Source of the DNA: an uncultured Acidobacteriota bacterium
Lineage (GTDB): Bacteria; Acidobacteriota; Vicinamibacteria; Vicinamibacterales; CAVVIG01
Assembly (NCBI GenBank): GCA_963696165.1
Contig: CAVOIY010000004.1
Coordinates: 44,753-108,752, forward strand
Length of the DNA: 64,000 bases
Direction: 5' to 3'
A model generated the notes under the pieces. It searched no databases. It had not been told where the DNA came from and saw nothing but the letters and a program-made list of their open reading frames with translations. Each line of letters begins with the position of its first letter. Positions within the stretch are counted from its first letter, which is position 1. Below, one piece after another: positions 18,824 through 63,903 of the stretch. The position numbers and the translations under genes are program-made.

Positions 18824-18872
18824 GCTGGCAGCTCGTGGCGTGTGGCTGGTGGCTGGCAGCTGGTGACTGGTA
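18824..18872 (-). repeat. GCTGGTG/CCACCAG-family heptamer array (copy B1) in the V4R/mobA divergent spacer
   Basis: Plus strand: GCTGGCA GCTCGTG GCGTGTG GCTGGTG GCTGGCA GCTGGTG ACTGGTA (7 x 7 nt). Shares CTCGTGGC[G/T]TGTGGCTGGTGGC[T/C]GG with 46632-46656. Confidence 0.85.
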
Positions 18873-18885
18873 AGATCGACGCGCC

Positions 18886-19479
18886 ATGTGGAGCGCGGCA
18901 ATTCTGGCGGGTGGCAAGGCGACGAGGCTGCACGGCCGCGACAAGAGCGCGCTCGTGCTCGGCGGCGAGTCCATTCTCACGCGTCAGCTGCGCGAGCTTG
19001 CGCAAGTCACCGGCGACATCATGATCGTCGGCGGCAATCCGCCGCGCGACAGAATTGGCACGGCGCGCCTCGTCAGCGATCGCATTCCCGAGTCGGGCCC
19101 GCTCGGCGGCCTGCACGCGGCGCTCGCGGAGGCGCTCGGCAGCGCGCTGGTCGTTGTCGCGTGCGACATGCCGAACATCTGCGCGCCGTTTCTCAGCCAT
19201 CTGCTCACGCTCACATGCGAAGGCGACATCGTCGTGCCGAAGACGGCGCGCGGGTATCATCCGTTGTGCGCGGCGTACGCGCGCGCGTGCCTCGGGCCGG
19301 TGTCGCGGCGCCTCGCCGACAATCGCTTGAAGATGACAGGGCTCTTCGACGATATGCGCGTGCGGATTGTCGGGACGGAGGAAATCGGAGCATTCGGCGA
19401 TCCGGACCAACTGCTCGCCAACGTCAATACGCCGGACGAGTATCTGGAGCTCGAGTCGCTTCACGGTCACAAACTGTAA
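18886..19479 (+). CDS. mobA: molybdenum cofactor guanylyltransferase
   Basis: Intact 197 aa. N-terminal AAILAGGKATRLHGRDKSAL nucleotide-binding motif, and ..GPLGGLHAAL...VVACDMP... Confidence 0.85.
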   Translation: MWSAAILAGGKATRLHGRDKSALVLGGESILTRQLRELAQVTGDIMIVGGNPPRDRIGTARLVSDRIPESGPLGGLHAALAEALGSALVVVACDMPNICAPFLSHLLTLTCEGDIVVPKTARGYHPLCAAYARACLGPVSRRLADNRLKMTGLFDDMRVRIVGTEEIGAFGDPDQLLANVNTPDEYLELESLHGHKL

Positions 19480-23606: not shown

Positions 23607-24326
23607 TCTTACGGCATCAATTGAACGTGATGATGGGCAGGCCCAGGCGGTCGCGGACGAGGCGATCGAGCGCCGCCTCTCGCGCGCGGGCGAACGCGTC
23701 GGGCATCATCGTGTCGCGAAACGGCGCCAGCTCCTCGTTCGCTTCTCGCCTGAGGTCGGCCATCACGCACGTCAGCGAACAATCGGCGCGCAGCCTCCAT
23801 GAGCTCGGCGTCGAGCACGGCCAGACGTTCGATCACCGCCCGTCGCGCGTCGCCGCGCACACCCGCGCGCGCGACATCGAGTTCGCGCGCAACCCGGTCG
23901 AGCAGATCGTCGAAGGCCGCCGGCAGCAGTCCGCTCGCACGCGCCTGCGTCAGACGCATCACGACACGCTCGAGGTGCGCGGGCAACGACTGACGACTGT
24001 GCGACTGCCGACTGAAGACTGTCGACTGCCGACTGACGACCGGCGACTGACGACTGCGGCAGTCCCGTCGCCCTTCGCCACTCGTCGAACACGTCGAGCA
24101 CGTCGGCCTCGCAGAAATCGATCTTCACGGGCCGGCGGCGCGGTCCCTTGCGGTAGTAGCGCTCGAAGTACCGATCGATGCCGCGGAACGCGACCTTCAG
24201 CGGAACGCCGTCGGCCGCCCATCGCGACACGAGCTCGAACGAGGGACCGACGACGCGGATCAGATGGCCGTCGTTCTTCTGGCACAGGTACGCTTCGATC
24301 TCGCGGCAGAACTCTGAAGTCTCCAC
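23607..24326 (-). CDS. hypothetical two-domain protein whose inter-domain linker is a heptamer-repeat array
   Basis: GTG 24326 VETSEFCREIEAYLCQKNDGHLIRVVGPSFELVSRWAADGVPLKVAFRGIDRYFERYY..DEWRRATGLP. A linker follows, QSSVAGRQSAVDSLQSAVAQSSV. A helical C-domain LPAHLERVVMRLTQARASGLLPAAFDDLL.. sits in another frame, and the last part ..DRLVRDRLGLPIITFN* sits in a third. No family recognised. Confidence 0.55.
23987..24064 (-). repeat. CGACTGA/TCAGTCG-family heptamer array (copy C1) inside a CDS
   Basis: 78 nt made of 11 units. Plus strand: CGACTGA CGACTGTG CGACTGC CGACTGAA GACTGT CGACTGC CGACTGA CGACCGG CGACTGA CGACTGC GGCAGTC. Confidence 0.85.
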
Positions 24327-30893: not shown

Positions 30894-30962
30894 TCCTTTG
30901 GCCTTCTGCCTTCAGCTTTCGCACTTCTGCCTTCGACCTTTTGCCTTCAGCGTAGCCTTTCA
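30894..30962 (-). repeat. GCCTTCT/GAAGGCA-family heptamer array (copy D1) filling the spacer between the two mutase genes
   Basis: Plus strand: TCCTTTG GCCTTCT GCCTTCA GCTTTCG CACTTCT GCCTTCG ACCTTTT GCCTTCA GCGTAGC ... Confidence 0.8.
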
Positions 30963-36548: not shown

Positions 36549-37820
36549 ATGCCACAGACGCTCGAACCGACCCGGCCTTCCCCGAATCCGTTTGCGATTG
36601 CACAGCAGCAATTCGACACCGCCGCTCACATTCTCAACCTCGATCCCCGGCTCCGCGCCGTGCTCCGCGAGCCGGTCCGTGAGCTGCACGTCTCGCTCCC
36701 CGTCCGCATGGACGATGGCGACGTCAAGGTGTTCAAGGGATTCCGCGTGCAGTACAACGATGCGCGCGGTCCGTCGAAGGGCGGCATCAGGTTTCATCCC
36801 GACGAGACAGTCGATACCGTTCGCGCGCTCGCGGCGTGGATGACATGGAAAACCGCGGTGATGGACCTGCCGCTCGGCGGCGGCAAAGGCGGCATCATCT
36901 GCAATCCAAAACTTCTGTCGGAGCGCGAGCTCGAACGGTTGTCGCGCGCCTACATCGACGCGATTGCATGGATCATGGGACCCGAGCGCGACATCCCGGC
37001 GCCCGACGTCTACACCACACCCCAGATCATGGGGTGGATGATGGACGAATACAGCAAGCTCCGCGGCCACTCCACGCCGGGCGCGATCACGGGCAAGCCG
37101 CTGTCGCTGTGGGGCTCGCTCGGGCGCGACGATGCGACGGCGCGCGGCACGTGGTACGCGATTCGAGAAGCAGCGCGCGTGATCGGCATCGATCTGTCGA
37201 AGGCGCGCGTGGGGATTCAGGGCTTCGGCAACGCGGGCACCTTTGCCGCGACGCTTGGGCTGGAGCTTTTCGGCTGCAAGGTCGTCGCGGTAACCGATTC
37301 CAAAGGCGGCGTCTTCAACCCGAATGGACTGCAATACGACGACGTCCGCGCGCACAAATCGGCGACGGGATCCGTGGTCGGCTTTCCGACTGGTCAGATG
37401 ATCAGCAACGCGGACATCCTCGAAGCCGACGTCGACATCCTGATCCCCGCCGCGCTGGAGAGCCAGATCACAGTGGACAACGCGCCCCGCGTGAAAGCGC
37501 GGATCGTCGCCGAAGCAGCGAACGGGCCCACGACGCCCGAGGCGGACGCGCTGTTGCACGCGCGTAACGTATTCGTGATCCCGGATTTTCTCTGCAACGC
37601 CGGCGGCGTCACGGTGTCGTATTTCGAATGGGTGCAGAACCAGCGCGGGATGCCGTGGGAGCTCGAGGACGTGCATCGCCGGCTCGATCGCAAGATGACG
37701 CGCGCCTTCGCGGAAGTGCTCGCCTCCTCACGCAAACACAACGTCGACATGCGCACCGGCGCCTACTGCGTGGCGGTTGCGCGAGTGGCCGAAGCGACCC
37801 GCGCGCGCGGCTGGGCATAA
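36549..37820 (+). CDS. Glu/Leu/Phe/Val dehydrogenase family (glutamate dehydrogenase-like), paralog 2, intact
   Basis: 423 aa. ..[53 protein letters not shown].., ..IQGFGNAGT.., ..[15 protein letters not shown]... Confidence 0.92.
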
Positions 37821-37821
37821 C

Positions 37822-37875
37822 GACTGTGGCTAGTGGCTGGTGGTCTGTGGCTGGCGCCAGCCACAAGCCACTTTC
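37822..37875. terminator. GCTGGTG/CCACCAG-family element (copy B2) forming a 15-bp hairpin between convergent genes
   Basis: GACTGTG GCTAGTG GCTGGTG GTCTGTG GCTGGCG, then CCAGCCACAAGCCAC. GTGGCTAGTGGCTGG pairs with CCAGCCACAAGCCAC with 1 mismatch. It fills the entire gap between stop codons 37820 and 37876. Confidence 0.7.
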
Positions 37876-39696
37876 CTATGACGTGATTCGAAATCCGATC
37901 ATGTCCTTCGCTTCCCCGGAGGCGCTCGTCGCGGTCAGCTCGAGTGAGTATTCACCGACGGCGAAGCCCGCCAGGGGCAGTTCTATCTGGCTTGGACCAT
38001 CGGGCCAGATGTCGCCGTCGACCCGCAGGTTGCGCAGCGGCTGGCCGAATCGACTCATGACGCGCGCCGAAATAACCGGCCGCTCGGTGCCCGGGGCGTA
38101 GCCCGATACGCGAATGATCAGCCGCTCCGTGCGACTGAACTCCCTCGAGGCGACCGGCGCCGCGTTGCGATCCGATTGCAGTGCCCGGAACTCGAGCGCA
38201 TTGCGCGCGCGCAGCACTTCTGGCGTGCCGAGAACGACTGCGTTCGCCAGATCGCGAACCGCAAGATCGCGAACGTCCGAATCGATCACCTGAAGCCCGC
38301 CGTCTTCGATCGACATGCGCAGCCGCAGGCGCCCTGGCGGCACATCGAACACCGCCCGCAGGCGTGACGCCTCCGGACCCTCGGCGGGACTGCCGCCGGT
38401 CGGAAGCACCGTGCCCTGAAATACAGGCGCATCGTCGCTTCCGAGCGCGGTGAGCTCGACGCGCGCCGCGGTGTGCCGGCTGCGTTCGCCGGGAATCCGC
38501 ACCGGCTCCCAGACGAACGTGATGCGGGTCTTGCCCGCTTCGCCGCGTTGGCTGCCGAACCACGGCCGGATGAGAAGGCTGGTGTGGCGCGGTGGTTCGA
38601 GAACGACCGGCTTCTTTGGCAGCGCTTCGCGCGCGAGCCATTCGGCGCGCAGCAAATCGTCGGCTGATGCCGCCCAGTAGCCCTTGCGCGATCGCAGCTG
38701 CACTCCACGGCGCTTGGTCCGCAGCTGAATCTCATGGAAGTGACCGTCGATCTTTCGCGGTGATCGGTAGGTCAGCAGGTAGTAAACACTCGAATCCGTC
38801 GCGATGCGCCGGAAGGCCGGTTCGAGATCGCCGTCGGTGAAAACGGCTTGCCCGTCGGTCTCGGCAGCGAGCGTCCGCAGGCCGTCGGCCTGGACGGAAT
38901 CGGTTTCGGCGGGCAGACCGCTCGGATCAATCGGGTAAATCGACACATTGAACCGATCGGCTGACTGGACAACCGAGTCGAGCGTGGGCAGGTTCAAACC
39001 GCGGCGGCGGCCGACATGCGCCACGCCTTCAGAGACGACGATGAGCGTCTTGCGCGCGTCGGTCGAGGCCCAGCCGAGATGCACGGCGAGCGCGTTGAGA
39101 GCCGACAGCGTCACCTGCGTCCGCGTTTGATCGACAGCGGCAGGCGTGCTGGCCATGTAATTCTGCTCGTAGTCGTTCCTGGGTTCGTAGTTGCCTTTCC
39201 GTCCCTCGAACGTCGCGATCGCCGACTTCGCGGATTCGCGATCGTGAGTCAGCCGGATTGCCAGCACGGAGTCGAGCGGCTTCATCACGACGAGCAGATC
39301 GCGAGGACCGAGATCTCGATCCACAAAACGCGTCACCGCCTCGCGTACGCGCGCCGTGGCCTCGCCACCTGATACGTGATACTCGTCCAGGTAAATCGCG
39401 AAGAGACGCGTCCCCGGCTGCAGCGCGTCCGCTTGTTCAGTCTCGGCTGTGCCACGCGACGCCGCCGAAACGGGCGTGGTGCCGCCCGCGCGGACCAGCT
39501 TCGCGGCCTCGATGGCCTGCGGCGCGCCGTCTTCGCGAAGCTCGAAATCAGCGGCGGTCAGCGTTTCGACGAATCGGCCGCGCGCGTCGAACGCGCCAAT
39601 ATCGATTCGTACGGTCGTGTCCGGGGTGAATGCAGGAGCCGGCGCCTGCTGAGCGGCGACGGCGGCGGCGATGAGCGCGGCGCCAAGTGCGCGCAT
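37876..39696 (-). CDS. secreted VWFA-related protein (Acidobacterial VWFA-type), intact
   Basis: 606 aa. Signal peptide MRALGAALIAAAVAA, N-terminal ..VRIDIGAFDARGRFVETLTAADFELREDGAPQAIE.., and a vWA-like core ..LFAIYLDEYHV.., ..TLIVVSEG.., ..VSIYPIDPSG... The architecture matches my recollection of TIGR03436. Confidence 0.8.
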   Translation of the reverse strand: MRALGAALIAAAVAAQQAPAPAFTPDTTVRIDIGAFDARGRFVETLTAADFELREDGAPQAIEAAKLVRAGGTTPVSAASRGTAETEQADALQPGTRLFAIYLDEYHVSGGEATARVREAVTRFVDRDLGPRDLLVVMKPLDSVLAIRLTHDRESAKSAIATFEGRKGNYEPRNDYEQNYMASTPAAVDQTRTQVTLSALNALAVHLGWASTDARKTLIVVSEGVAHVGRRRGLNLPTLDSVVQSADRFNVSIYPIDPSGLPAETDSVQADGLRTLAAETDGQAVFTDGDLEPAFRRIATDSSVYYLLTYRSPRKIDGHFHEIQLRTKRRGVQLRSRKGYWAASADDLLRAEWLAREALPKKPVVLEPPRHTSLLIRPWFGSQRGEAGKTRITFVWEPVRIPGERSRHTAARVELTALGSDDAPVFQGTVLPTGGSPAEGPEASRLRAVFDVPPGRLRLRMSIEDGGLQVIDSDVRDLAVRDLANAVVLGTPEVLRARNALEFRALQSDRNAAPVASREFSRTERLIIRVSGYAPGTERPVISARVMSRFGQPLRNLRVDGDIWPDGPSQIELPLAGFAVGEYSLELTATSASGEAKDMIGFRITS

Positions 39697-45530: not shown

Positions 45531-45674
45531 CTCGCGGGGCCCCACCCCCGCTCGATGACGCCTTCGCGCCGTAGCGCTCGGCGTTCCTAGAACAGAACGT
45601 CGCAGCGGGGCCGCGGCCCTTCGCCTGCTCGTCTTCGCGCCGTAGCGCTCGGCGTTCCTAGAACAGAACGTCGC
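45531..45674 (-). repeat. 75-nt REP-like element copy 2, plus an exact 42-nt tandem partial copy
   Basis: 45531-45605 matches 12626-12700 (71 of 75). The 42-mer CTTCGCGCCGTAGCGCTCGGCGTTCCTAGAACAGAACGTCGC occurs at 45562-45603 and again, identically, at 45633-45674. It lies 9 nt upstream of the acyl-CoA dehydrogenase ATG 45521. Confidence 0.9.
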
Positions 45675-46630: not shown

Positions 46631-46690
46631 CCTCGTGGCTTGTGGCTGGTGGCCGGTGACTGGTGGCGCGGGCCCTCAGCCACCGACGCA
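46631..46690 (-). repeat. GCTGGTG/CCACCAG-family heptamer array (copy B3) filling the rpsA-ihfB spacer
   Basis: Plus strand: CTCGTG GCTTGTG GCTGGTG GCCGGTG ACTGGTG GCGCGGG CCCTCAGCCACCG. It is bounded by the rpsA stop (46691) and the ihfB Shine-Dalgarno. Confidence 0.85.
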
Positions 46691-48487
46691 TCACCGATTG
46701 CGAAAGTGATCCCCGAGCGTCGCCGTGCCGTCGCCCGTCGACTCCTGATAGCTTTCCCAGTCGGCCCGGAACTCGTCGGACTTCAACGCGCGAATCGACA
46801 GGCCGATCTTCCGCTCCGCCGGCGCGAGCTTGATGATCTTCATCGGGTACGTCTCGCCGACGGTCAGCTCGATCTTCCCGTCCTTGCCGACGTGCTGCGA
46901 GTCGTCGAACTCCGAAACGTGAATCAATCCTTCGATGCCCTCATCGAGCTCCACGAAGGCGCCGAAGTTCGTCATGCGCACGACCTTCCCTTCGATCGTG
47001 TCGCCGACGTGGTGCCGCGAGAAAAAGTCGTCCCAGATGTCGGTCGCGAGCTGCTTGAGGCCGAGGGACAGCCGCTGGTTCTCTGCGTCGATGTTGAGCA
47101 CCATCGCCTCGACTACGTCGCCCTTCTTCAGCACTTCGGACGGATGCTTGATCCGCTTGCTCCACGACATGTCCGAGATGTGAATCAGGCCGTCGATCTC
47201 CTCTTCGACTTCGACGAACGCGCCGAACTCAGTGAGGTTCCGGACCTTGCCGTGAATCTTCGAGCCGACCGGATACTTGTCCGCCAGATCGTGCCAGGGG
47301 TTCGTTTCCACCTGCTTCAACCCGAGCGAAATCCGCCGGGCCGTGGGATCGACGCCGAGCACCATCGCATCGACCGTGTCGCCGACGTTGAGGATCTTCG
47401 ACGGGTGCTTGACGCGCTTGCTCCACGACATCTCGCTGACGTGAATGAGGCCTTCGACGCCGGCCTCGAGCTCCACGAATGCGCCGTAGTCGGTGAGGCT
47501 CACGACCTTGCCGGCCATGCGCGCGCCGACCGGGTAACGGTCCATCACGTTGGCCCATGGATCGGTGATGAGCTGTTTGTGCCCGAGCGACACGCGTTCG
47601 GTCGCCGGATCGTATTTCAGCACGATCACGTCGATCTCGTCGTTCACCTTGAACAGCTCGGACGGATGCCCGACGCGCCCCCACGACATGTCCGTGATGT
47701 GCAGCAACCCGTCGATGCCGCCAAGGTCGATGAACGCGCCGTAGTCGGTGATGTTCTTCACCACGCCTTTGAGCACTTTGCCCTCGGCGAGCGTCTCGAG
47801 CGTGTGCTTTTTCTTCTCGGCGTTTTCTTCTTCGAGCAGCGCCTTGCGCGACAGGACGATGTTGCCGCGCTTCTTGTTCACCTTGATGACGCGCATGCGC
47901 AGTTCTTGTCCGCGCAGCGCATCGAGGTTGCGAACCGGACGAACGTCGATCTGCGACCCGGGAAGAAACGCGCGGACGCCGATGTCCACCGCCAGGCCGC
48001 CCTTGATCCGCTCGATGACGCGGCCGATGACGACCTTGCGCTCGGCATAGGCCTTCTCGACCTCGTCCCAGATCTTCATCTTCTCGGCTTTTTCGCGCGA
48101 GAGGACGACGTAGCCTTCGCGGTCTTCAGTGCGCTCGAGCAGTACGTCGACGATGTCGCCCGCCTGAACGGTGACTTCGCCGTTTTCGTCGAGGAACTCG
48201 CTGACTTGGATGATGCCTTCGGATTTGTATCCGACGTCGACGACAACTTCAGACGCGGTGACTTTGAGAACCGTCCCCTTGACGACCTCGCCTTCCGCGA
48301 TGTTGCGGAAGCTGCTATCGTAGGAATCGAGCAGCCGCGCGTAATCGGCCGGATCCATTTGCTCGTCGTCGTCGCGCGGAAGGGCCTTGAGGCCGCCGCG
48401 CTCTCCGCGGGGTTCGCGGTCGATCGTCCCGGTGCTGCTCGTGCCTCGGGCCGATCCGGGGGTGTGCTCCTCTTCTACGTTCGCCAT
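46691..48487 (-). CDS. rpsA: 30S ribosomal protein S1
   Basis: Six S1 OB-fold repeats (..GEVVKGTVLKV.., ..GKVLKGVVKNITDYGAFIDLGGIDGLLHITDMSW.., etc.). The frame is intact. ATG 48487 is preferred because GGAGGA lies 10 nt upstream. The ORF is open to 48574. Confidence 0.93.
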   Translation of the reverse strand: MANVEEEHTPGSARGTSSTGTIDREPRGERGGLKALPRDDDEQMDPADYARLLDSYDSSFRNIAEGEVVKGTVLKVTASEVVVDVGYKSEGIIQVSEFLDENGEVTVQAGDIVDVLLERTEDREGYVVLSREKAEKMKIWDEVEKAYAERKVVIGRVIERIKGGLAVDIGVRAFLPGSQIDVRPVRNLDALRGQELRMRVIKVNKKRGNIVLSRKALLEEENAEKKKHTLETLAEGKVLKGVVKNITDYGAFIDLGGIDGLLHITDMSWGRVGHPSELFKVNDEIDVIVLKYDPATERVSLGHKQLITDPWANVMDRYPVGARMAGKVVSLTDYGAFVELEAGVEGLIHVSEMSWSKRVKHPSKILNVGDTVDAMVLGVDPTARRISLGLKQVETNPWHDLADKYPVGSKIHGKVRNLTEFGAFVEVEEEIDGLIHISDMSWSKRIKHPSEVLKKGDVVEAMVLNIDAENQRLSLGLKQLATDIWDDFFSRHHVGDTIEGKVVRMTNFGAFVELDEGIEGLIHVSEFDDSQHVGKDGKIELTVGETYPMKIIKLAPAERKIGLSIRALKSDEFRADWESYQESTGDGTATLGDHFRNR

Positions 48488-49287: not shown

Positions 49288-49959
49288 TCACCTTTTGCCT
49301 TTTGCCTTTTGCCTTTGCACTTCTTCCATCACATCTCTTACGACCTCCTCCACCGACTTCCCGGTGGTGTCGACAACGATCGCGTCGGCGGCGGCGTATA
49401 AGGGCGACGCCGTTCGCGTGCGGTCCTGCTGGTCGCGTTCGGTAAGGAGCGTGGCGACCTCAGAGACCGCAGCCGGAACGCCCGTATGTGCCGGATCGAC
49501 GGCGCGACGGCGCGCACGCTCCTCGGGCGACGCATCAAGATAGATTTTGACGTCGGCCCGCGGAAATACGACAGTGCCGATGTCACGGCCTTCCATCACG
49601 ATCCCTCCGTCGACACCGAGCTCCCGCTGACGCTCGACGAGCACGGACCGCACTTTTGGCAATCGCGCAACGGCGGCGGCGGCGCGGTCGATTTCAGGCG
49701 TCCGTATGGCGCGGGTGACGTCGACGTCATCGATCGTCACGGTCGCGCTGTGAACCGCAATGTGCGACTGGCGGGCGAGTTCAGCGACGAGGTCCTGATC
49801 GTCGAGCGGCACGCCGTGTTGAAGCGCCTTCCATCCCACAGCGCGGTACATGGCGCCGCTGTCGACGTGCCGGTATCCGAGGGCACTGGCGATTGCGCGA
49901 GCGACGGTACCCTTTCCGGCGCCGGACGGTCCGTCGATGGCGATGATGAGGGGCTTCAT
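49288..49959 (-). CDS. cmk: cytidylate kinase
   Basis: MKPLIIAIDGPSGAGKGTVARAIASALGYRHVDSGAMYRA.. (P-loop), intact. The C-terminal tail ..EEVQRQKAKGKR* is encoded by the heptamer array. Confidence 0.92.
   Translation of the reverse strand: MKPLIIAIDGPSGAGKGTVARAIASALGYRHVDSGAMYRAVGWKALQHGVPLDDQDLVAELARQSHIAVHSATVTIDDVDVTRAIRTPEIDRAAAAVARLPKVRSVLVERQRELGVDGGIVMEGRDIGTVVFPRADVKIYLDASPEERARRRAVDPAHTGVPAAVSEVATLLTERDQQDRTRTASPLYAAADAIVVDTTGKSVEEVVRDVMEEVQRQKAKGKR
49289..49325 (-). repeat. GCCTTTT/AAAAGGC-type heptamer array (copy D2) at the abutting stops of two convergent genes
   Basis: Plus strand: CACCTTTT GCCTTTT GCCTTTT GCCTTTG CACTTCT TCC. It shares ..TT[C]GCACTTCT.. with D1. Confidence 0.8.
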
Positions 49960-52037: not shown

Positions 52038-52742
52038 CTAGTGCACCGCTCCGCTCGGTTCATCCTCTGAAGGCTCCTCGAGCGGCAGCATCTCCTCCGG
52101 CGGGTTCCGCTCGACGAGCAGCGGCGCCTCGAGGCCGAGCGCCTCGGCCATGTCCTCGACCTTCGGCAGGTCGTTCAGATCGTTCAGCCCGAACCGAATC
52201 AGGAATTCCTTCGTCGTCGCGTACATGAACGGCCGGCCGACGACCTGCTTGCGGCCGACGATCTTGATCAGGTGCCGCTCGAGCAGCGTGTTCAGCACGC
52301 CCGACGTGTTGACGCCGCGAATTTCGGTGATCTCGAGCGCCGTGACCGGCTGGCGGTACGCGATGACGGCCAGCGTCTCGAGCGCCTGCACCGACAGCTT
52401 CTGCGTCGTCCGCTCGTGGAACAGCCGCCGCACCCATTCGTGCAGGTCGGGGCGCGTGACGATCTGATAGCCGCCGGCGACTTCGACGAGCTGCAGCCCG
52501 CCCGGCCGCTCGTAGTCCTGCTTCAGCTCCGCGAGCGCCGCCTGGACGTCTTCCTTCGGCTCGCCGTCGAGCAGCTTGTAGATCGCCTTCGGCGTCAGCG
52601 GCTCGGGCGACGCGAAGATCAGCGCCTCGAGAATCGCCTTCAGCTCCGCGGCCGGCGCGCTTCGGCATCTCTTCGTCGGCCTCGATCCGGCCTTCCTGCC
52701 GCTTCCGATCGCTTCGTCGTTCACGAGATCGTCTTCACTCAT
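52038..52742 (-). CDS. scpB: segregation and condensation protein B
   Basis: ..LKAILEALIFASPEPLTPKAI.., ..GGLQLVEVAGGYQIVTRPD.., ..QALETLAVIAYRQPVTALEITEIRGVNTSGVLNTLLERHLI... The ATG overlaps the scpA stop (ATGA). Confidence 0.88.
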   Translation of the reverse strand: MSEDDLVNDEAIGSGRKAGSRPTKRCRSAPAAELKAILEALIFASPEPLTPKAIYKLLDGEPKEDVQAALAELKQDYERPGGLQLVEVAGGYQIVTRPDLHEWVRRLFHERTTQKLSVQALETLAVIAYRQPVTALEITEIRGVNTSGVLNTLLERHLIKIVGRKQVVGRPFMYATTKEFLIRFGLNDLNDLPKVEDMAEALGLEAPLLVERNPPEEMLPLEEPSEDEPSGAVH

Positions 52743-53585: not shown

Positions 53586-54591
53586 TCATCTGTACGAGAT
53601 CTTCACCGCGTCGCGGACGCGCGCCATCGTCTCCGCCGCCGACGCGCGCGCGCGCGCGTCGAGCCCTCGAACAGGATTTCCTTCAGCCGATCCGGCTTGG
53701 CGAGCACGGCCGCGCGCCGCTCGCGAATCGGATCGAGATGCGCGTTCAGCGCGTCCGCGAGCTTCGTCTTCACCTCGACGTCGCCGACCTTCCCCGCGCG
53801 GTAGCGCGCCTTCAGGTCGTCGACTTCCGCCGTGTTCGGGTTGAACGCGTCGTGATAGATGAACACCGGATTGCCTTCGACCGTGCCGGGGATGTCGGCG
53901 CGGACGCGCTTCGGATCCGTGTACATCCGCATGACCTTCTTCTTCACGTCGTCGGCGATGTCCGACAGGTGAATCGTGTTGCCGAGGCTCTTGCTCATCT
54001 TCTTGTCGCCGTCGAGCCCCGGCAGGCGCCCGAACGTCGTCAGCAGCGGCTGCGGCTCGACGAGCACGTCGCCGAAGAACTTGTTGAAGCGGCGGACGAC
54101 CTCGCGCGCCAGCTCGAGGTGCGCGACCTGATCTTCGCCGACCGGCACGAACCGCGCGTCGTACATCGCGACGTCGGCCGTCTGCAGCAGCGGATAGCCG
54201 AGAAAGCCGATCGACGACAGATCCTTGTCCTTCAGGTTCTCCTGCTGCTCCTTGTAGGTCGGCACGCGCTCGAGCCACGGCACCGGCACGACCATCGACA
54301 GCAGCAGATACAGCTCGGCGTGCTCGGGCACGAGCGACTGGACGAAGAACGTGCTCTTCTCGGGATCGAGCCCGGCGCCGATCCAGTCGGCGACGTTGTC
54401 GTACGCGTACGACGTCAGCTGGCTCGTGTCGGCGAAATCGCTCGTCAGCGCGTGCCAGTCGGCGACGAAATAGAAGCAGTCGTACTGCGCCTGCAGCGGC
54501 ACCCAGTTGCCGAGCGCGCCGACGAGATGGCCGAGATGCAGGCGGCCGGTCGGCCGCATGCCGGAGACGACGCGCGCGCTTGCGGCGTCAC
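53586..54591 (-). CDS. trpS: tryptophan--tRNA ligase; two frame breaks (just after the start and near the 3' end)
   Basis: ..VVSGMRPTGRLHLGHLVGAL.. (HIGH-type), ..KKMSKSLGNTI.. (KMSKS) and a C-terminal ..AAETMARVRDAVKISYR*. GTG 54591 overlaps the upstream TGA (GTGA). Confidence 0.9.
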
Positions 54592-55239
54592 TTCGTCGGC
54601 AGCCAGGAGCACGAGCAGGCGGTACGGCGGCACGACGAGGTACTCGAAGCCGCCGCGTGAGCATCAGCGCGTAGAGCAGCAGGAAGCCGTACGGCCGCAC
54701 GCAGGTCGAACGCGCGCGCGAGCCGCGCGGCAGCAGGCCGCCGAGCACGTTGCCGCCGTCGAGCGGCGGAATCGGAATCATGTTGAAGACCGCCAGCAGC
54801 ACGTTGAGCCGCATCGCGCGGCTCAGCAGTCGACGCGAGCGGCGCCGAGACGTTCGGCTCGCCGAGCGTCACCGGCGACACCGGCAGCAGCAGCAGCGCG
54901 ATCGCCGACGGCGATCGCGAGCACCAGATTGCTCGCCGGGCCGGCCGCCGCGACGAGCACGTAGTCGCGCCGCGGATGCCGCAGCTGCCGCACGTTGACC
55001 GGCACCGGCTTCGCCCAGCCGATCAGCGGAACGTTGCCGATCAGCGCGATCAGCGGAAACAGGATCGTGCCGATCAGATCCGCGTGCACGATCGGATTGA
55101 GCGACACGCGGCCGAGCAGCCGCGCCGTCGGATCGCCGAGCCGATCGGCCGTCCACGCGTGCGCCATCTCGTGCACCGTCAGGGAGAACAGCAGGACGAT
55201 GAACGCGATGAAAATCTGCGCGAAGTTGATGTCCGGCAA
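54588..55239 (-). CDS. M50-family (site-2 protease-like) membrane zinc metalloprotease; about four frame breaks
   Basis: TTG 55239 LPDINFAQIFIAFIVLLFSLTVHEMAHAWTADRLGD.. (HExxH), and ..NVLLAVFNMIPIPPLDGGNVL.. in another frame. Confidence 0.8.
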
Positions 55240-55250
55240 GGAGTAACAGG

Positions 55251-57135
55251 TTACGGCCGACTCGCGAAAAACGCAAGAACGGCATCGGCGACTTTCGCGC
55301 CGACGACGGCCGCCAGTTCCTCGCGCGTCGCGCGCCGGACGCCGGCCAGGCTGCCGAACGTCGTCAGCAGCGTCCGCCGCCGGCGCGGACCGATGCCCGG
55401 CACGTGGTCGAGCTCCGAGCGAAGATCGCGCATCGTCCGCGCCTTGCGGTGAAACGTGACGGCGAAGCGATGCGCTTCGTCGCGAATGCGCTGGATCAGC
55501 AGCAGCGCCGGATCGTTCGCGCCGAGCGCGATCGGATCGTCGCGGTCGCGCGTGAAGAGCAGCTCTTCCTTCTTCGCGATGCCGACCGCCACGAGGTTCG
55601 CGAGCCCGAGCTCCTCGAGCGCCGCGTACGCGGCCGAGAGCTGTCCCTTGCCGCCGTCGATCAGGATCAGATCGGGAAACGGTCCGCCCTGCTCGAGCAG
55701 CTTGCGATAGCGCCGCAGCACGACTTCGTGCATGGCGGCGAAGTCGTTGTTGGCGGCTGGTGGCTCGGTGGCTGGTGCGCTGGATCGACTCGAGCCACCG
55801 AGCCACCGAGCCTCGAGCCCCAGCCGCTTGATTCGGAACTTCCGGTACTCGCCGCGCCGCATGCGGCCGTCTTCGCACACGACCATCGACGCGACGGTCT
55901 CGCTGCCCTGGATCGTCGAGATGTCGAAGCACTCGATGCGGCGCGGCAGCGCCGGCAGCGCCAGCACCGCCTGCAGCGTCTCGAGCGCGTCGTACTGCGC
56001 CGCGGTCGTCTGGTTGAAGCGCGTCTGATACGCGAGCGCCGCGTTGCGGTTGGCGAGGTCGACCAGCGCCGCGCTTGTCGCCGCGCTGCGGCACGACGAT
56101 GCGCACCTGCGGCCCGGCGCGCTCGGACAGCCAGCTCTCGAGCGCCTCGCGCTCGTCCGGCTCCGACGGCACGTGGATCTCCGGCGGCGCCGTCGCGCAG
56201 CTCGTAGAACTGCTGCAGCGCCGCCTCGAGCACCTCGCCCTCGCTCGACCCGACGATCGGCGTCGTCGGTCCCGAGCTCGACGCGCTCGACGACGCGGCC
56301 GCCGCGGACCTGGAAGACCTGGACGACGACGCCGGCCGGACCGAGCTTGAGGCCGAACACGTCGCGATGCCCGAGCTCGGCCGTCGCCATCTTCTGCTGG
56401 CGATCGTGCAGCGTCTGCACCGTCCGCATCGCGTCGCGCAGCTGCGCCGCTTCTTCGAAGCGCTCGCCCGCCGCCGCGTCGAGCATCCGCGCCGCGCAGC
56501 GTCTTGATCAGCTCGTCGTTCCTGCCCTCGAGAAACAGCTGCGTCAGTCTTCGACGGCGCGCGCCGTACTCCTCCGGCGAGCAGATCGTGTCGACGCACG
56601 GCGCGATGCAGCGCTTGATGTCGTACTCGAGGCACGGCCGGTCGCGCTTGCCGGTGATCACCTCGTTGCACGATCGGATGCCGAACAGCCGGTGCGTCAG
56701 CGCCATCGTCCTCCGCGCGAAGCTGCGCCGGCAGGAACGGGCCCGGCGTAGAAGCTGCCGTCGCGCTCGACGCGCGCGCGCCACGAGCACGCGCGGAAAG
56801 GCCTCGTTCGTCGTGAGCTGCAGGTACGGATAGTTCTTGTCGTCGCGCAGCAGGATGTTGTATTTCGGCGTGCGCTGCTTGATCAGGTTGTTCTCGAGCG
56901 CGAGCGCCTCGACGACCGAGTCGGTGACGATGACCTCGAGGCGCGCGACCTCGTCGAGCAGCGCGTCGGTCTTCGGATCGGCGCCGTAGCGCGCCGAGGT
57001 AGTTGCGGACGCGGTCGCGCAGCGACGCGCGCCTTGCCGACGTAGATCGTGTCGCCGCGCCGCGTTGAAGTACAGATAGACGCCGGGCTGCTCGGGCAGC
57101 CGGGCGATCTGCTCCTTGAGTTCGTGGATGGCCAT
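55251..57135 (-). CDS. uvrC: excinuclease ABC subunit C; about ten frame breaks by eye, plus an in-frame repeat-element insertion
   Basis: GIY-YIG ..LPEQPGVYLYFNA.., ..VEALALENNLIKQRTPKYNILLRDDKNYPYL.., ..ILIDGGKGQLSAA.. and the C-terminal HhH ..VPGIGPRRRRTLLTTFGSLAGVRRATREEL... Confidence 0.9.
55752..55819 (-). repeat. GCTGGTG/CCACCAG-family palindromic element (copy B4) inside the uvrC reading frame
   Basis: Perfect 15-bp stem GGTGGCTCGGTGGCT (55759-55773) / AGCCACCGAGCCACC (55793-55807). It encodes ..GLEARWLGGSSRSSAPATEPPAAN.. in the open uvrC frame. Confidence 0.85.
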
Positions 57136-57189
57136 ACGCTACTATGTCGCGTCTTCAGTCGGTGCCTGAACCCTCCATTATACGCACTC

Positions 57190-58048
57190 GTGCCACTCAC
57201 GCGCGCGCCGCGGCCGCCACACCACTACGCGCATCCCAGTCAGGATCCCGCGGCCGAGCTGACCTTCACCGGCGCCATCGGCGCCGTCTGCATGTTTCCG
57301 CTGCGCGCGATCATCAACGGCGTGCGTGGCGCTGCGGATTCACCCGAACACGCTGACGCTCATCGGCGTCCTCATCAACGTCGCCGCGGCGTGGGCGCTC
57401 GGCTACGGACGCTTCGTGCTGGCCGGCGTCATCATGATCGTCGCCAACATCTTCGATTTCATCGACGGCAAGGTCGCGCACAGCTGCAGCTGCAGTCGCA
57501 GTTCGGCGCCTTCTGGGACTCGACGCTCGATCGCTTCTCCGACCTCGCGCTGCTCACCGGCCTGATCTTTCTGTACTCGAAGCTCGGCCGCAGCGACTAC
57601 GTGCTGGTCGCCGCGCTGACGCTGATCTTCTCGATCATGACGAGCTACGCGCGCGCGCGCGCCGAGTCGCTCGTCGAGAAGTGCAAGGTCGGCTTCATGG
57701 AGCGGCCCGAGCGGATCGTGCTGTTCATGATCGGCGCGTTCACCAACCGGATGGCCGGCGTGCTGTGGGTGATCCTCGTGCTGTCGATCCTCGCGGTCGC
57801 CGAACCGGATCTACTACACGTATCTCGCGCTGAACGCGCTGCCGATGCCGTCGCAGGCAGGGCTGCCGCGGCGCCTTCAACCGCGCGTTCTTCTGGACCG
57901 ACGAGCGCGCGACGCTGCCCTACGATCTCTGGGTGATCGCGATTCTGGCGTTCGTCTGGCTGACGCCGCCCGACTGGCTCGGCGATCCGACGGCGCACGA
58001 TGCCGGCGTGGTCGCGCTGGCTCGCAAGGCTCGCGCACGAGGAACTAG
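57190..58048 (+). CDS. CDP-alcohol phosphatidyltransferase family protein; about four frame breaks, both ends uncertain
   Basis: ..IHPNTLTLIGVLINVAAAWALGYGRFVLAGVIMIVANIFDFIDGKVA.. + ..QFGAFWDSTLDRFSD.. gives the D-G-x2-A-R...G-x3-D-x3-D motif split over two frames. More TM helices follow. The start guess is GTG 57190. The 3' end could be 57936, 58048 or about 58108. Confidence 0.7.
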
Positions 58049-58056
58049 GCCGCGTT

Positions 58057-58919
58057 CTACGCGCGCTTACGCTTCGCCGTCGCGGACTTCGCCGCTGCGG
58101 CCGGCTTGATCGTCTCGGCCTTCGCCGCCTTCTTCTTGCCGGTGCTCACCGCATCGAGGCTCTTCTTCGAGCGCTTCCATCAGGTTCACGACCTTCGGCG
58201 GCGCCTCGACGCTCGGCGCGACGATCTCTTCGCCGGCGATCTTCGCGTCGATGATCCGCTGCAGCCCTTCCTGGTATTCGTCCTTGTAGGTCGCCAGGTC
58301 GAGCGGCCCTTCGAAGGTTTCGATCACCTGCTTCGCCAGCTTGATCTCTTCCGGCTTGACCTTCGCCGGCACCGCGTTCAGCTCCTCGACCGCGTCGATG
58401 CTGCGGATCTCGGCCGCGTGGTGCAGCGTGTACATCACGATGCCGCGCTCCTGCGGCTTGCACGGCGACGAGATACTCGCGGCCGTACAGCGCGAGCTTG
58501 CCGATGCCGACCTTCCCCTTCATGCCTTCGCGCATCACGGCGAACGCGTCGGCCGCCATCGGGCCGTCGGGCGCGAGGTAGTACGCGCGGTCGACGTACA
58601 TCGGATCGATCGCCGACTCGTCGGCGAACTGCACGAGATCGATGACGCGCGTCGACTCGGGCCGGACCTTGTCGAAGTCGTCCTCCGACACGACGACGTA
58701 GCGCCCCTTCTCGAACTCGTAGCCCTTGACGATCTCGGAGTTCGGCACCTCGCGGTTGCAGTGCGGGCACCAGCGCTTCTGCTGGATGCGCGTCTGGCAC
58801 TCGCCGTGGAGCTGGTTGAACGAGATCGTCCCGCTCGATTCGGTCGCCGGGAACACCTTGACCGGGATGTTCACCAGGCTGATCTTGAGGAAGCCCTTCC
58901 AGGTTGCTCGTGCAGCCAT
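58057..58919 (-). CDS. ku: Ku-type non-homologous end-joining DNA-binding protein; 2-3 frame breaks
   Basis: MAARATWKGFLKISLVNIPVKVFPATES..ISFNQLH..CQTRIQQKRWC.., ..YYLAPDGPMAADAFAVMREGM.., ..GIVMYTLHHAAEIRS.., and a Lys-rich tail ..LMEALKKSLDAVSTGKKKAAKAE..KRKRA*, with TAG at 58057-58059. Confidence 0.88.
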
Positions 58920-58924
58920 AGTAG

Positions 58925-59110
58925 TCCTCAGTCGCCTGTCTCAGTCGCCGAGCCGTCAGTCGGCAGTCCAGATGACGGTCAGTACATGCTATATCGGCAG
59001 TCAGCGGGTTGTCCTGAACCCAATGACGATTCTGACCGGCCCGACTGACGACTCGACTGACGACTGAAGACTTACGACTGACGACTGATGACTGGCGACT
59101 GACGACTACG
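58925..59110. repeat. CGACTGA/TCAGTCG-family element (copy C2): large inverted array upstream of ku
   Basis: The left arm carries TCAGTCG-type units (58926-58968). The right arm carries 8-9 CGACTGA-type units (59043-59110). An approximately 75-nt non-repeat centre separates them. Confidence 0.85.
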
Positions 59111-59509
59111 CGTCGTCCCGCTCGTCGTGCCCGCCGAGGTCCAGGCCGGTGCCCGTGAAATGGATCTCGTGCTCGCCGATCTTGTCGCGCAGGAGCCGTC
59201 GCGCGGCGCCGTAGTTGTCGCCCGGCACGGTGAGACGGCGCGCCAGATTGCGCAGCCGCGAGATGACGATCAGCGTCACGTCGTGCTCGCCCTCGCGCCA
59301 GCTGATGCCGCCGACCTCGTTGTACGGAATGAAGGCCGAGTCGGCCCAGATGCCGTCCTCGTAGAAGCCGCGGCGGATCCGCCGGCTGAGCGGCAGCAGG
59401 TAGCGCGTAGTAGACGAACATCATCGTCTCGCCGAACGCCTGCTGGTGCGAGAACAGCGACCTTGTAGACGACGAGCAGCCCGAGCACGACGCCGATGGC
59501 GAGCGTCAT
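59106..59509 (-). CDS. small two-TM protein with C-terminal PH-like domain (DUF5673-like?); at least 2 frame breaks
   Basis: ATG 59509 [17 protein letters not shown].., ..MMFVYYA.., then ..[82 protein letters not shown], with TAG at 59106-59108. The frame is also open upstream to about 59667. The family name is from memory only. Confidence 0.5.
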
Positions 59510-59678
59510 GCCGTAGTACGGCGGCTTGCGGGCTCGGCCAGGTGAGCAGCGCCGCTGCGCCGGCGCTGCAGGAAGCGCGACGTACTCGATCAGCACCGCC
59601 GCGCGTTGGCGACCGAGAAAGCCGACGCCGAGGAGCGAGCGAGAAACGCCGTCAACGCGTTGGCCACGCGATCGCCCG

Positions 59679-60266
59679 CTACGTCTGTTCGACGCGCCGC
59701 CAGCGTCGGATCGAAGCAGTGCCGGCAGCGCGCCTCGTAGAGGCCGGTCGCGCCGACGCAGCACGCGGTCGCTGCTCGCGACGAGCCGCTGCGTGTGGTT
59801 CGCCGGATCGCCGCAGACCACGCAGATGGCGAGCGTCTTGGTGATGTATTCCGCGATCGCGAGCAGCTGCGGCATCGGCTCGAACGGCCGGCCGAGGTAA
59901 TCCTGATCGAGGCCGGCGACGATGACGCGCTTGCCGCGGTCCGCGAGCGTGTTGCACGCCGCCGGCAGGTTCGCGTCGAAGAACTGCCCTTCGTCGATGC
60001 CGACGACTTCGGTGTCGTCGGCGACCTGCAGCGATCAGCTCGTCGGAGTTGCGGACGTTCTCCGACGCGATCCGCATGTCGCTGTGCGACACGATGTGAT
60101 CGTCGCTGAAGCGATCGTCGATGAGCGGCTTGAAGATCTGGACCTTCTGGCGGGCAATCTGCGCGCGGCGCAGCCGGCGGATCAGCTCTTCGCTCTTGCC
60201 GCTGAACATGCTGCCGGTGATGACTTCGATCCAGCCGTGCTGCGGTTGGCTGCGAACGACGTCCAT
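59679..60266 (-). CDS. tdk: thymidine kinase; 2-3 frame breaks
   Basis: [47 protein letters not shown].. (P-loop), ..[11 protein letters not shown].., ..[45 protein letters not shown].. and ..YEARCRHCF... Confidence 0.88.
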
Positions 60267-60316
60267 CGATCTACCGTCGTGAAACCTCGGCGGACCAGAT
60301 CGATCGAGCAGTGCGC

Positions 60317-60886
60317 TCATACGCGCGACTGGTATTCGCCCGTTTCGGTGTTGACGCGGATCATGTCGCCTTCGTTGACGAACGGCGGCACCTGGACGAC
60401 GAGCCCGGTCTCGAGCGTCGCCGGCTTGACCTGCGCGCTCGCCGTCGCGCCCTTGATGCCGGGCACCGTTTCCTTGACGACCAGATCGACCGTCGGCGGC
60501 AGCTCGATGCCGACCGGCTCGACGTCGTAGAACTCGACGCGGATCGATCGACGTCGGCGAATCAGGTAGTCCATCGAGTCGCCGAGCGCTTCGGTCGAGA
60601 TGTGGATCTGCTCGTAGGTCGACGTGTCCATGAAGTAGTAATGGTCGCCGTCGTTGTAGAGATACTGCATCTCGCGCTCGTCGAGCATCGGCGCGCTCGA
60701 CGTCTTCTTCCGCCCGGAACTTCTCGTCGGCCAGCGTCGCCGTGCGGATGTTGCGCATCCGCACCTGGATGTGCGCGCGCTTGTTGCCGGGCGTCAGGTG
60801 GTGCAGTTCGAGGATGCGGAAGAGGTCGTTGCCGACCTTGATGAGCATGCCCTTCGGAGCCGTGTCGCTTGAATCGATGACGCCAT
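60317..60886 (-). CDS. efp: elongation factor P; 2-3 frame breaks
   Basis: ..[38 protein letters not shown].. and ..[76 protein letters not shown] 60886 (MA..) needs a shift a few codons in. Confidence 0.9.
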
Positions 60887-60952
60887 ATTGTTGTCTGTAT
60901 ATCCTTGCAATCGTAGCACATATGGCTCGGGCCCGCAACCAAACATGCTACG

Positions 60953-61379
60953 ATGCGAAACGTGGCTTTCACGCGGTGGGATCCGCTCCGCGATCTGCTC
61001 GCGCTGCACGAGCAGATCGGGCAGCTGGTCGGCACCGACGCGCCCGGCTGGACGCCGCCGGTCGATCTGTACGAAACCGCCGGCCGAGTTCGTCCTCACC
61101 GCCGAACTCCCGGGCCTCTCGCGCGACCAGATCGAGATTCACGCCGAAGACAGCCGCATCACGATCCGCGGCGCGCGCGACGTCGGCGCCGCGGCGCAGA
61201 CGTGCCGTGCGAGCAGTATCACCGCGTCGAGCGCGGCCACGGCCGCTTCTCGCGCGCGTTCGTGCTGCCCGAGCCGATCGACGTCGGACGCGATCACCGC
61301 CGATCTGAAGGACGGCCTCCTCACGGTCACGATTCCGAAGGCCAGCGGCCGCGGCGCGCGCCGCATCGACGTGACATAG
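60953..61379 (+). CDS. Hsp20/alpha-crystallin small heat-shock protein; about four frame breaks
   Basis: MRNVAFTRWDPLRDLLALHEQIGQL..GWTPPVDLYET.., ..EFVLTAELPGLSRDQIEIHAEDSRITIRG.., ..YHRVERGHGRFSRAFVLPEPID.. and ..ITADLKDGLLTVTIPKA.. alternate between two frames. Confidence 0.88.
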
Positions 61380-61390
61380 CGCGACGTCTC

Positions 61391-62617
<1,227 letters not shown>

Positions 62618-62629
62618 CGCGCGGCGCCT

Positions 62630-63903
62630 TCAGGCCGACGTCGCCGCGCTGCCGCGCTTCGCCACCAGCGCTTCGAATTCCTTGAACGCGCGGCTCGAGG
62701 CGCACCGGCTCGGTCAGCCGGTCCTGCCACGACTTCCGCCGTCTTGTAGCCGTTGCCGGTGATGCAGACGACGATCGATTCGTCGCGCGGCGATGACGCC
62801 GCGCTCGATCAGATCGATCGTCGCCGGCGAGCGTCGTGCCGCCGGCCGGCTCGGTGAAGATGCCTTCGGTTTCCGCGAGCAGCTGAATCGCGTCGACGAT
62901 CTGCGTCGTCGCGACACCGCCGCGCCGCTGCCGCCGGTCGCTCGGACCGCTCTCGAGCACCTGATAGCCGTCGGCGGGATTGCCGATCGCGATCGACTTG
63001 GCGATCGTGTCCGGCCGCACCGGCTCCGGATGCTCGAGGCCCGCCTCGAGCGCGCGCACGACCGGCGCGCAGCCCGCCGCCTGCGCGGCGTGGATGCGCG
63101 GCAGCTCGCCGTCGACGAGGCCGACCTCGCGCAGCTCGCGGAACCCGCGCAGGATGCGCGGCAGCAGCGTGCCGCCGGCGACCGGCGAGACGACGTGCTG
63201 CGGATAGCGCCAGCCGAGCTGCTCGACGATCTCGAAGCCCATCGTCTTCGCGCCTTCGGCGTAGTACGAGCGCAGGTTGATGTTCACGAATCCCCAGCCG
63301 TAGCGATCCGCCACCTGCGTGCACAGCCGGTTCACGTCGTCGTAGTTGCCGGCGATGGCGAGAATCGTCGGCCGGAAGATCGCGGAGCCGAGCACCTTGC
63401 CCGGCTTCGAGGTTGTCGGGAATGAAGACGCAGCACTCGACGCCGAGCCGCGCGGCGTGCGCCGCGACGCTGTTGGCGAGGTTGCCGGTCGAGGCGCACG
63501 CGAGCACGTTGAAGCCGAGCTCGACGCGCGCGCGTCGCCGCGACCGACACGACGCGGTCCTTGTAGGACAGCGTCGGATGGTTGACCGAGTCGTCTTTGA
63601 TGTACAGCTCGCGCACGCCGAGCCGCTCGGCCAGGCGGTCGCAGCGCACGAGCGGCGTGAAGCCGGAGTTGAAGCCGGTGCGCGGCTCGCCGGCGATCGG
63701 CAGCAGCTCGCGGTAGCGCCACAGGTTCTTCGGCCGCGCGCTCGATCTCGCGCGCGCGTGACGTGAACGGCCGCGTAGTCGTAGACCGGCTCGAGCGGAC
63801 CGAGGCAGCGGTCGCAGACGTACAGCGCTTCGGCGGGAAACAGCGCCTTACACAGATGACATTGCAGTCCGATGAGCGCGCTCACACGCCTCCGCTCGAT
63901 CAC
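62630..63903 (-). CDS. thrC: threonine synthase (long form with N-terminal Cys-rich segment); about eight frame breaks
   Basis: ..[31 protein letters not shown].., the PLP-lysine motif ..[15 protein letters not shown].. (ORF 63332..63649), ..[28 protein letters not shown].. and ..[37 protein letters not shown]... The likely end is ..[19 protein letters not shown], with TGA at 62630-62632. Confidence 0.88.

Follow-up and report, generated by a model that had tools for sequence, protein, structure and literature searches.

How does a long DNA palindrome come to lie, translated, within the catalytic domain of a DNA-repair enzyme? The question is raised by the uvrC gene in a 64-kb stretch of DNA (the window, whose numbering is used below) from an uncultured bacterium of the Vicinamibacterales, phylum Acidobacteriota. 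An initial annotation, made from the letters alone, described the palindrome as a member of a GCTGGTG/CCACCAG repeat family that had invaded uvrC as a lineage-specific insertion, in parallel with the Rickettsia palindromic elements (RPEs). That a palindromic DNA repeat is translated in frame inside uvrC was borne out. The origin that we favour, with a probability of about 0.6, is a different one: the window insert would be the form taken here by an old hotspot, common to the clade, at which a hairpin repeat is remodelled in a permissive loop of UvrC.

The gene lies on the minus strand and its product is recognized as UvrC by matches to Pfam PF08459 and HHH_5 and to PDB entry 2NRT (Table 1); the insert breaks the UvrC_RNaseH_dom match in two. 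Translated on this strand, the frame GEYRKFRI-KRLGLEARWLGGSSRSSAPATEPPAAN-NDFAAMHEVV contains no stop, in agreement with the initial annotation, and the perfect 15-bp stem that the latter reported was recovered in its place by an inverted-repeat search. The 30-nt arms (55755-55784 and 55790-55819) are 77% complementary and enclose a 5-nt loop, and the palindrome, 65-75 nt in size, accounts for the surplus linker codons. Folded as RNA, the 81-nt linker reaches -53.3 kcal/mol (z = -6.13; 0/200 dinucleotide shuffles fold as well), and as DNA -31.2 kcal/mol (z = -5.79). What the earlier account lacked is the building block, a tandem unit of 7-8 nt set in inverted arrays. The window carries a GGTGGCT(C/G) version of it, with a period of 8 in both arms according to Tandem Repeats Finder (TRF); the NDFAAM-side arm is G-rich on the plus strand and C-rich on the coding strand.

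Is this insert peculiar to one lineage? Outside the clade the corresponding linker is short. It is exactly six residues long, typically KTVEGV, in 47 of the 53 UvrC loci among the matches listed that come from other phyla or from Acidobacteriota outside the clade, against 27 in the window, so the surplus of residues noted earlier is real; solved UvrC structures have about 3-6 residues at the site, and six is the modal length among representatives chosen at 50% identity. Within the clade, the closest 120 homologs in the protein collection (73-100% identical to the query, from Vicinamibacterales, mostly of soil metagenomes) have linkers of 5-59 residues in 99 cases and of up to 74 in others. A second set, 120 metagenome loci found by searching DNA for the DFAAMHEVV codons that are specific to the clade, gave readable linkers of 5-99 residues in 102. 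Another 13 loci of this set stop inside or beside the insert, and in at least nine of these it is the whole contig that ends, as one would expect of assemblers at repeats. Over 200 Vicinamibacterales orthologs carry a varied insert of 5-99 residues at the same codons. The expected lineage-specific insertion was therefore not found: the relatives all have hypervariable inserts, different in sequence, at these codons. Distant Vicinamibacteria (L001-L004) have 8, 8, 24 and 48 residues and none has kept the canonical TVxG loop, and in several lineages the insert is down to five residues. Among the 50%-identity representatives, every long linker except that of P0194 (YRKFII) stands between clade-type flanks, defined as YRK[FY](R/K)(I/V) on one side and DD(F/L)A[AS]M or DDFEAM on the other. 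In 48 full-length clade UvrCs the linker is the sole strongly length-variable site; a second variable site, after RVELGTDE, shows ordinary indels and no repeats. In-frame loci number 102, vs about three with frame problems.

Long linkers also turn up elsewhere. P0194 is a Terriglobia-like representative from outside the main clade with a 57-residue linker at the same site, and a metagenome-assembled genome (MAG) of a distant member of the Acidobacteriota has a 17-residue linker there (L039, 10241-10291) with a weak hairpin (z = -2.1); each may have arisen by an insertion of its own in this loop. The UvrC of an Ignavibacteriales MAG, from an unrelated phylum (L048, 6299-6355), contains an in-frame TTACGAA x8 array, giving the peptide ITNYELRITNYELPITN, in another loop of the same domain, between helix alpha2 and the next strand.

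Could the palindrome be a long-read or consensus error? The window shows a clear excess of single-base insertions in many genes. By comparison with L150 and L124 (87% identity), uvrC has nine single-base insertions, none of them in a homopolymer, and zero single-base deletions; its N-terminal two thirds switches frame repeatedly. As assembled the gene is frameshifted, and only a 411-residue C-terminal open reading frame (ORF) is called in the public record (P0001). Set against about 100 related contigs, the excess covers 55830-57140 and 59100-63900 (44 vs 7 in 60317-63895), with frameshifts in several genes, while 46700-48350 and 52100-52650 are free of extra single bases. It looks like unpolished long-read consensus error and, since neighbouring genes show it too, is a property of the assembly and no evidence that uvrC is a pseudogene. 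The catalytic triad of UvrC, in the RNase H-like endonuclease domain, is D-D-H (Seck et al. 2023, PMC10085695); its counterparts by sequence, the CFDIS, IDGG and DEAHRF motifs, are all intact in the translation. That the insert itself is such an error is unlikely, because four extra C/G bases that turn 7-mers into 8-mers are mirrored in both arms of the perfect stem, and because both flanks share one frame. More than 100 independent assemblies, mostly short-read metagenomes from the Joint Genome Institute, have in-frame repeat inserts at the same codons, and we find an artefact scarcely credible.

The DNA of the inserts has a characteristic build. Periodicity and folding were analyzed in the 63 distinct inserts that measure 45 nt or more. 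Autocorrelation is strongest at a period of 7 nt in 46 of them, vs the 3 nt expected of coding DNA, and 62% fold with z < -2 against shuffles; the longest perfect inverted repeats are 29 bp. In most inserts tandem 7-nt units form a pair of inverted arrays, a G-rich arm and then a C-rich arm (G-rich first half with C-rich second half in 24 inserts, the reverse in one). In 7-nt register L084, for instance, reads CGTGGCT x3, CGTGACT, loop, AGCCACG, AGTCACG, and L157 reads NGGGGCT x4, loop, GCCCCCA x2, GTCCCCA x2. Translated arms give peptides such as RGLGLGARGS...APSPQPPAP, RWDSGFGIRDS...IPNPESR and GSWLVAGGS...PATSHQLPAT. The motifs are diverse, with 98 canonical motifs in 186 arrays. Some inserts have no heptamer array: those of L107, L177 and L128 have one long palindrome in common, its stems reaching 29 bp, and at four successive stem positions these loci disagree, each change being perfectly compensated. 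Others are an ARPSTGSGRA...LVVSLSNHE palindrome, several longer elements, and composites that resemble nested insertions.

How fast do these sequences change? Inserts are identical where flanks are identical. L124 and L137 have flanks 99.0% identical and inserts 85% identical, a divergence in the insert about 15 times that of the flanks; they differ by a one-heptamer register shift that leaves total length unchanged. L083 and L099, with flanks 96.9% identical, have unrelated inserts of 99 and 189 nt, and the relatives nearest to the window in DNA (87% identity) likewise carry inserts that are similar in size but unrelated in sequence. In a lineage with a six-residue loop, RTVTGT, the loop is constant over 0-15% divergence; the instability therefore belongs to the inserted repeat and not to the bare site.

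The invasion proposed in the initial annotation would imply recent transposition, in which a discrete mobile palindrome of the GTGGCTG family landed in frame in uvrC, in the manner of a miniature inverted-repeat transposable element (MITE), a repetitive extragenic palindrome (REP) or an RPE. There are observations that transposition would explain. Members of the motif family are over-represented in the window, where GTGGCTGGTGGC has 22 matches with at most two mismatches vs 6.3 +/- 2.4 expected, clustered in uvrC and at three other loci (18835-18860, 37826-37871 and 46635-46683). The metagenome contigs that end inside the insert behave as at dispersed repeats, and the composite inserts look nested. 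Moreover, about 125 nt of the uvrC insert of L129 recur about 4 kb off on the same contig (5987-6110), between the 3' ends of two convergent ORFs; this intergenic copy is about 90-95% identical, with an 85-nt BLAST core at 95%. Its part 6019-6110 matches uvrC inserts at seven loci, its own contig included, with 89-96% identity, and the match is to the 3' part of those inserts, a heptamer array always preceding it in uvrC. Arrays of the same motifs as inserts also lie outside uvrC in L140, L158 and L002. Dispersed repeat families therefore contribute to the uvrC site. For the window copy, however, invasion by transposition was not substantiated. The site is already occupied in all relatives and offers no virgin target; there is no full-length paralog of the element in the 64 kb, no target-site duplication or flanking direct repeat was seen around the palindrome, and GTAG and CGTC tags are absent from the ends of 55753-55827 on both strands. 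The best other window matches to the 15-nt stem have 2-3 mismatches, which is chance level. The GCTGGTG/CCACCAG family stands, then, at the level of the motif and its three other window loci, and not as a set of high-identity copies. The unrelated inserts of similar size in the closest relatives fit replacement or remodelling equally well, and on balance we regard recent transposition as rather unlikely.

A 9-bp perfect hairpin adjoining the insert, in the DFAAMHEV codons (55720-55728 / 55739-55747, ACGACTTCG / CGAAGTCGT), was considered as a target structure and dropped. It is 8-9/9 complementary in most insert-bearing orthologs; it is frequent in insert-free lineages too, and the DF and EV codons largely force it.

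The hotspot that we favour would have begun in the ancestor of the Vicinamibacterales group, where a hairpin-forming repeat would have replaced the canonical six-residue loop (K/R)TVxGx. Three kinds of remodelling may have followed. Replication slippage of 7-nt units within each arm is suggested because L124 and L137 differ by a one-heptamer register shift. Hairpin-templated (template-switch) copying or wholesale replacement, in which the arms would stay complementary, is suggested because stem differences are compensated and close strains have unrelated inserts. Lastly, other palindromes dispersed in these genomes may have inserted within the segment or converted it, as the L129 paralog and the composite inserts suggest. 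Because UvrC is needed, selection would pass only variants that are a multiple of three in length, stop-free and tolerated as a disordered surface loop. GTGGCTG is stop-free in all frames (checked by hand) and the GACTGAC family upstream of ku contains TGA; the motif families found in uvrC appear to be stop-free. The insert peptide is probably functionless baggage, and the UvrC loop would be a long-lived hotspot that turns selfish repeats into protein sequence.

Several points weigh against this history. The remaining 38% of the 63 inserts have no significant fold, and some, such as that of L001, are single-orientation arrays. Insert motifs match heptamer arrays in their own flanks no better than they match the arrays of other genomes, and the window insert has no long, high-identity paralog within 64 kb, its likeness to other arrays there being at motif level only. 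The steps of the mechanism are ones that we infer, none having been observed directly. The single ancient origin is suggested by clustering of the flanking sequences, and repeated independent insertion at a preferred site would look similar. Finally, the assembly that holds the window insert is error-prone, with its extra single bases.

Might the nucleic-acid structure instead be what is selected? The hairpin could act in cis, in mRNA processing or pausing, or its 7-nt units could make uvrC phase-variable. A cis role would fit the compensated stem differences and the fact that the hairpin has persisted throughout a deep clade while its sequence turned over completely, yet the inserts that fold without significance, the lineages reduced to five residues, and the lack of constraint on loop length, stem length and sequence all speak against it; nor was any relevant Rfam family found in a scan of 54000-58000 at E <= 1. 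As to phase variation, a 7-nt unit does shift the frame, and in L175, a short contig, the frame is lost within the C-rich arm of heptamers and would be regained with one 7-nt unit. Di Nocera et al. (2013; PMC3733652) have speculated that REPs in Uvr and Rec genes may favour mutator states. However, classical contingency tracts differ from these arrays, which are short and imperfect, and frameshifted alleles are few, the remaining ones also coming from short or error-prone contigs. We consider both forms of this explanation improbable. Also unlikely, though a little less so, is a wider proposal in which an undescribed, sequence-independent process builds and renews inverted 7-nt-array hairpins, the UvrC loop being their sole tolerated intragenic nursery and the insert a phase-variable repair switch, worked by unit slippage at the level of populations, or a cis-regulatory structure in Vicinamibacterales and probably other soil bacteria. 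Were the switch or the cis-regulatory reading true, the insert would be more than baggage.

Where does the insert fall in the protein? Aligned with the Thermotoga maritima UvrC structure (2NRT), it lies between YRRYKI and DDYESI and replaces three residues. In an AlphaFold2 model built with 20 homologs (mean predicted local distance difference test score, pLDDT, 79.9) a coil of residues 81-109 joins the strand and the helix that carry the two anchors (Table 1), and its residues 85-104 are predicted to be disordered. Alignment and model both place the site in the beta3-alpha1 loop, within the RNase H-like 5'-endonuclease domain and not between domains; the earlier expectation of a loop between the Cys-rich/UVR region and that domain was mistaken. 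Immediately after the insert comes the conserved (D/N)D of helix alpha1, which probably corresponds to E. coli D438, reported in older mutagenesis work to affect 5' incision. The 17-residue Loop1 of Deinococcus radiodurans UvrC was rejected as the same site, as that loop connects beta6 to beta7, downstream of the second catalytic Asp (PMC10085695).

The place of the loop, just before the (D/N)D pair, would fit a reading in which a disordered segment near the active site is selected for its peptide, for partner binding or regulation of 5' incision, the repeats being incidental; a partner-binding role has been suggested for species-specific loops at other points of the domain (Seck et al. 2023, PMC10085695). 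But a period of 7 rather than 3 and reverse-complement halves cannot stem from peptide selection, no residue pattern is conserved across inserts beyond a leading RG, and the length range and the rate of divergence relative to the flanks point the same way. We judge adaptation at the protein level very improbable.

Do the inserts belong to a known class of element? RPEs are dispersed palindromes that are also translated in frame in housekeeping genes (Ogata et al. 2000, summarized in PMC10969869). The parallel drawn by the initial annotation holds for the outcome: both are palindromic, dispersed and in frame, the host protein is presumed functional and the extra peptide sits in a tolerated position. 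The window insert is indeed palindromic (z = -6.1), translated in an open frame and placed in a coil with pLDDT < 50 between beta3 and alpha1. The parallel fails for family and range. RPEs, as described there, form a conserved-sequence family of about 100-150 bp that occurs in Rickettsia once each in many unrelated genes, whereas the uvrC inserts occupy one loop of one gene in a whole clade, with many unrelated sequences of 15-300 nt and rapid turnover. The window palindrome is 65-75 nt, in a Vicinamibacterales host, and it is by size and host that the two were compared; uvrC is the only gene in the window with an internal in-frame copy, and of 95 arrays outside uvrC in related loci about 3 seem to lie within genes, mostly as C-terminal tails.

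REPs, which have a GTAG or CGTC tetranucleotide at the end of a 20-40 bp palindromic unit, have also been found inside genes, with a bias to replication and repair (UvrA, UvrB, UvrC, UvrD, RecBCD, DnaE2; Di Nocera et al. 2013, PMC3733652). The supplement to that paper places them in UvrC of Rickettsia conorii (RC0864, residues 438-446 of 639) and of Xanthobacter autotrophicus (Xaut_2344, residues 550-585 of 779); these positions fall about 69-71% of the way along the proteins, where the same loop could lie. A search with the Xanthobacter REP peptide brought up no candidate UvrC. REPs are tagged and are single events per species, whereas the uvrC insert is untagged and marks a clade-wide hypervariable site. 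As for MITEs, the insert has no flanking direct repeat and no near-identical copies in the window. It works like an RPE, a tagged REP or a MITE, yet lacks features that define each of them.

Heptameric simple sequence repeats are known as cyanobacterial short tandemly repeated repetitive (STRR) sequences, as GGGNATC repeats of Xanthomonas and Nostoc (Rehm et al. 2015, PMC4692102) and as TAACTGA repeats of Beggiatoaceae (MacGregor 2015, PMC4679880). They resemble the arrays described here in that tandem 7-nt units are over-represented, mostly intergenic and often upstream of start codons, with occasional translation at protein ends and similar motifs (GGGATTC, CGACTGA); in our data, too, period 7 is over-represented, mainly in intergenic DNA. 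The published repeats are direct arrays, whereas here a quarter are paired as inverted arrays that give hairpins, one of them in a catalytic domain. In Borg proteins, tandem repeats are reported to create disordered regions (PMC9879509). Here too fast-evolving nucleotide-level repeats are kept in frame and add disordered segments; those of Borgs are direct, affect many genes and belong to an archaeal extrachromosomal element, whereas the uvrC inserts are palindromes in one conserved loop.

Literature searches on Acidobacteria heptanucleotide repeats, in-frame palindromes in uvrC and Vicinamibacter repeats returned nothing relevant. We found no report of a clade-wide hypervariable hotspot in one catalytic-domain loop, nor of the inverted-array hairpin organization of heptamer repeats or their abundance in Acidobacteriota, to which the present data draw attention. 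Earlier in-frame palindromes, in Rickettsia and as scattered REPs, some in Uvr genes, were viewed as isolated events. Here over 100 natural alleles, of 5-99 residues and from several repeat families, are available for one catalytic-domain loop of an essential-type repair enzyme, with turnover that can be traced between near-identical strains. This makes it possible to test how hairpin repeats get into coding DNA and stay there, what insertion load an RNase H-fold active-site loop can bear, and what functional meaning, if any, attaches to recurrent repeats in DNA-repair genes.

Heptamer arrays built like the uvrC inserts are abundant outside the gene. In 746 kb of Vicinamibacterales DNA, 131 arrays have period 7, vs 1, 16 and 22 with periods 6, 8 and 9, and the density of period-7 arrays is 32.6 per 100 kb vs 5.9 in other phyla. 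Adjacent inverted array pairs outside the catalogued inserts number 19 as listed; those of L109 and L175 prove to be uvrC inserts, which leaves 17, and the G-rich arm comes first in 13 of these. The window has six TRF period-7 arrays of at least 3.5 copies (starting at 18831, 23986, 30901, 46635, 49291 and 59042) and a seventh at 37824-37853, where the TRF consensus unit is 6 nt. Apart from 23986-24056, they lie at gene ends or upstream of starts. The array at 46635-46692 is upstream of a minus-strand ORF starting MTKAELVEEV, which by eye reads as HU/IHF-like. A protein search for other host proteins with a synthetic heptamer-hairpin peptide gave two irrelevant matches only.

Table 1. Coordinates of the uvrC insert, its gene and related repeat arrays in the window
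Feature	Position	Strand	Evidence
27-codon linker KRLGLEARWLGGSSRSSAPATEPPAAN, in place of a 5-6 residue loop	55749..55829	-	pLDDT < 50 at residues 85-104
Upstream anchor, YRKFRI codons, end of strand beta3	55830..55847	-	AlphaFold2 strand, residues 70-80
Downstream anchor, NDFAAM codons, start of helix alpha1	55731..55748	-	AlphaFold2 helix, residues 110-128
Whole palindrome, outer 8-bp stem 55753-55760 / 55820-55827	55753..55827		Minimum free energy structure pairs the ends
NDFAAM-side arm, 7-8 nt tandem units GGCTGGTG / GCTCGGTG / GCTGGTG	55755..55784		Inverted-repeat search; TRF 55751-55783
YRKFRI-side arm, perfect 8-nt units CGAGCCAC x 2.8 (+ strand)	55790..55819		TRF 55791-55812, 100% matches
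Perfect 15-bp stem 55759-55773 / 55793-55807, 19-nt interval	55759..55807		Exact matches on both strands
uvrC as assembled	55251..57135	-	Three-frame translation; tblastn with L002 UvrC; alignment to L150/L124
C-terminal UvrC part	55254..56072	-	Pfam UvrC_RNaseH_dom (PF08459) E = 3.8e-51; HHH_5; PDB 2NRT E = 1.5e-46
GTGGCTG-family intergenic hairpin, tandem units then inverted arm	37824..37875		Fold z = -3.82 (37815-37880)
GTGGCTG heptamer array x4.7, partial inverted arm	46635..46692		Fold not significant, z = -0.45
GCTGGTG heptamer array x5.9, single orientation, just upstream of ORF at 18886	18831..18871		TRF, motif scan

Some of the other window repeats deserve mention. A CGACTGA x9.7 array (59042-59107) lies 120-190 nt upstream of the Ku gene (58149-58919, minus strand). 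CGACTGA arrays also occur in L118, L172, L180 and possibly L144, and as the second window array at 23986-24056; only L118 and L172 demonstrably span the ku-upstream part of the window. Judging from these sequences the motif may be conserved at the ku intergenic site, unlike at uvrC. The array at 30901-30948 recalls the start-proximal TAACTGA repeats of Beggiatoaceae. At 49291-49316 a perfect CCTTTTG x3.7 array (CAAAAGG on the coding strand) encodes the in-frame C-terminal tail QRQKAKGKR-stop of a cytidylate kinase (Pfam E = 1.4e-71). Lastly, a 71-nt unit is present in two tandem copies at 45534-45674 (84% matches, TRF score 203), in seemingly intergenic DNA.

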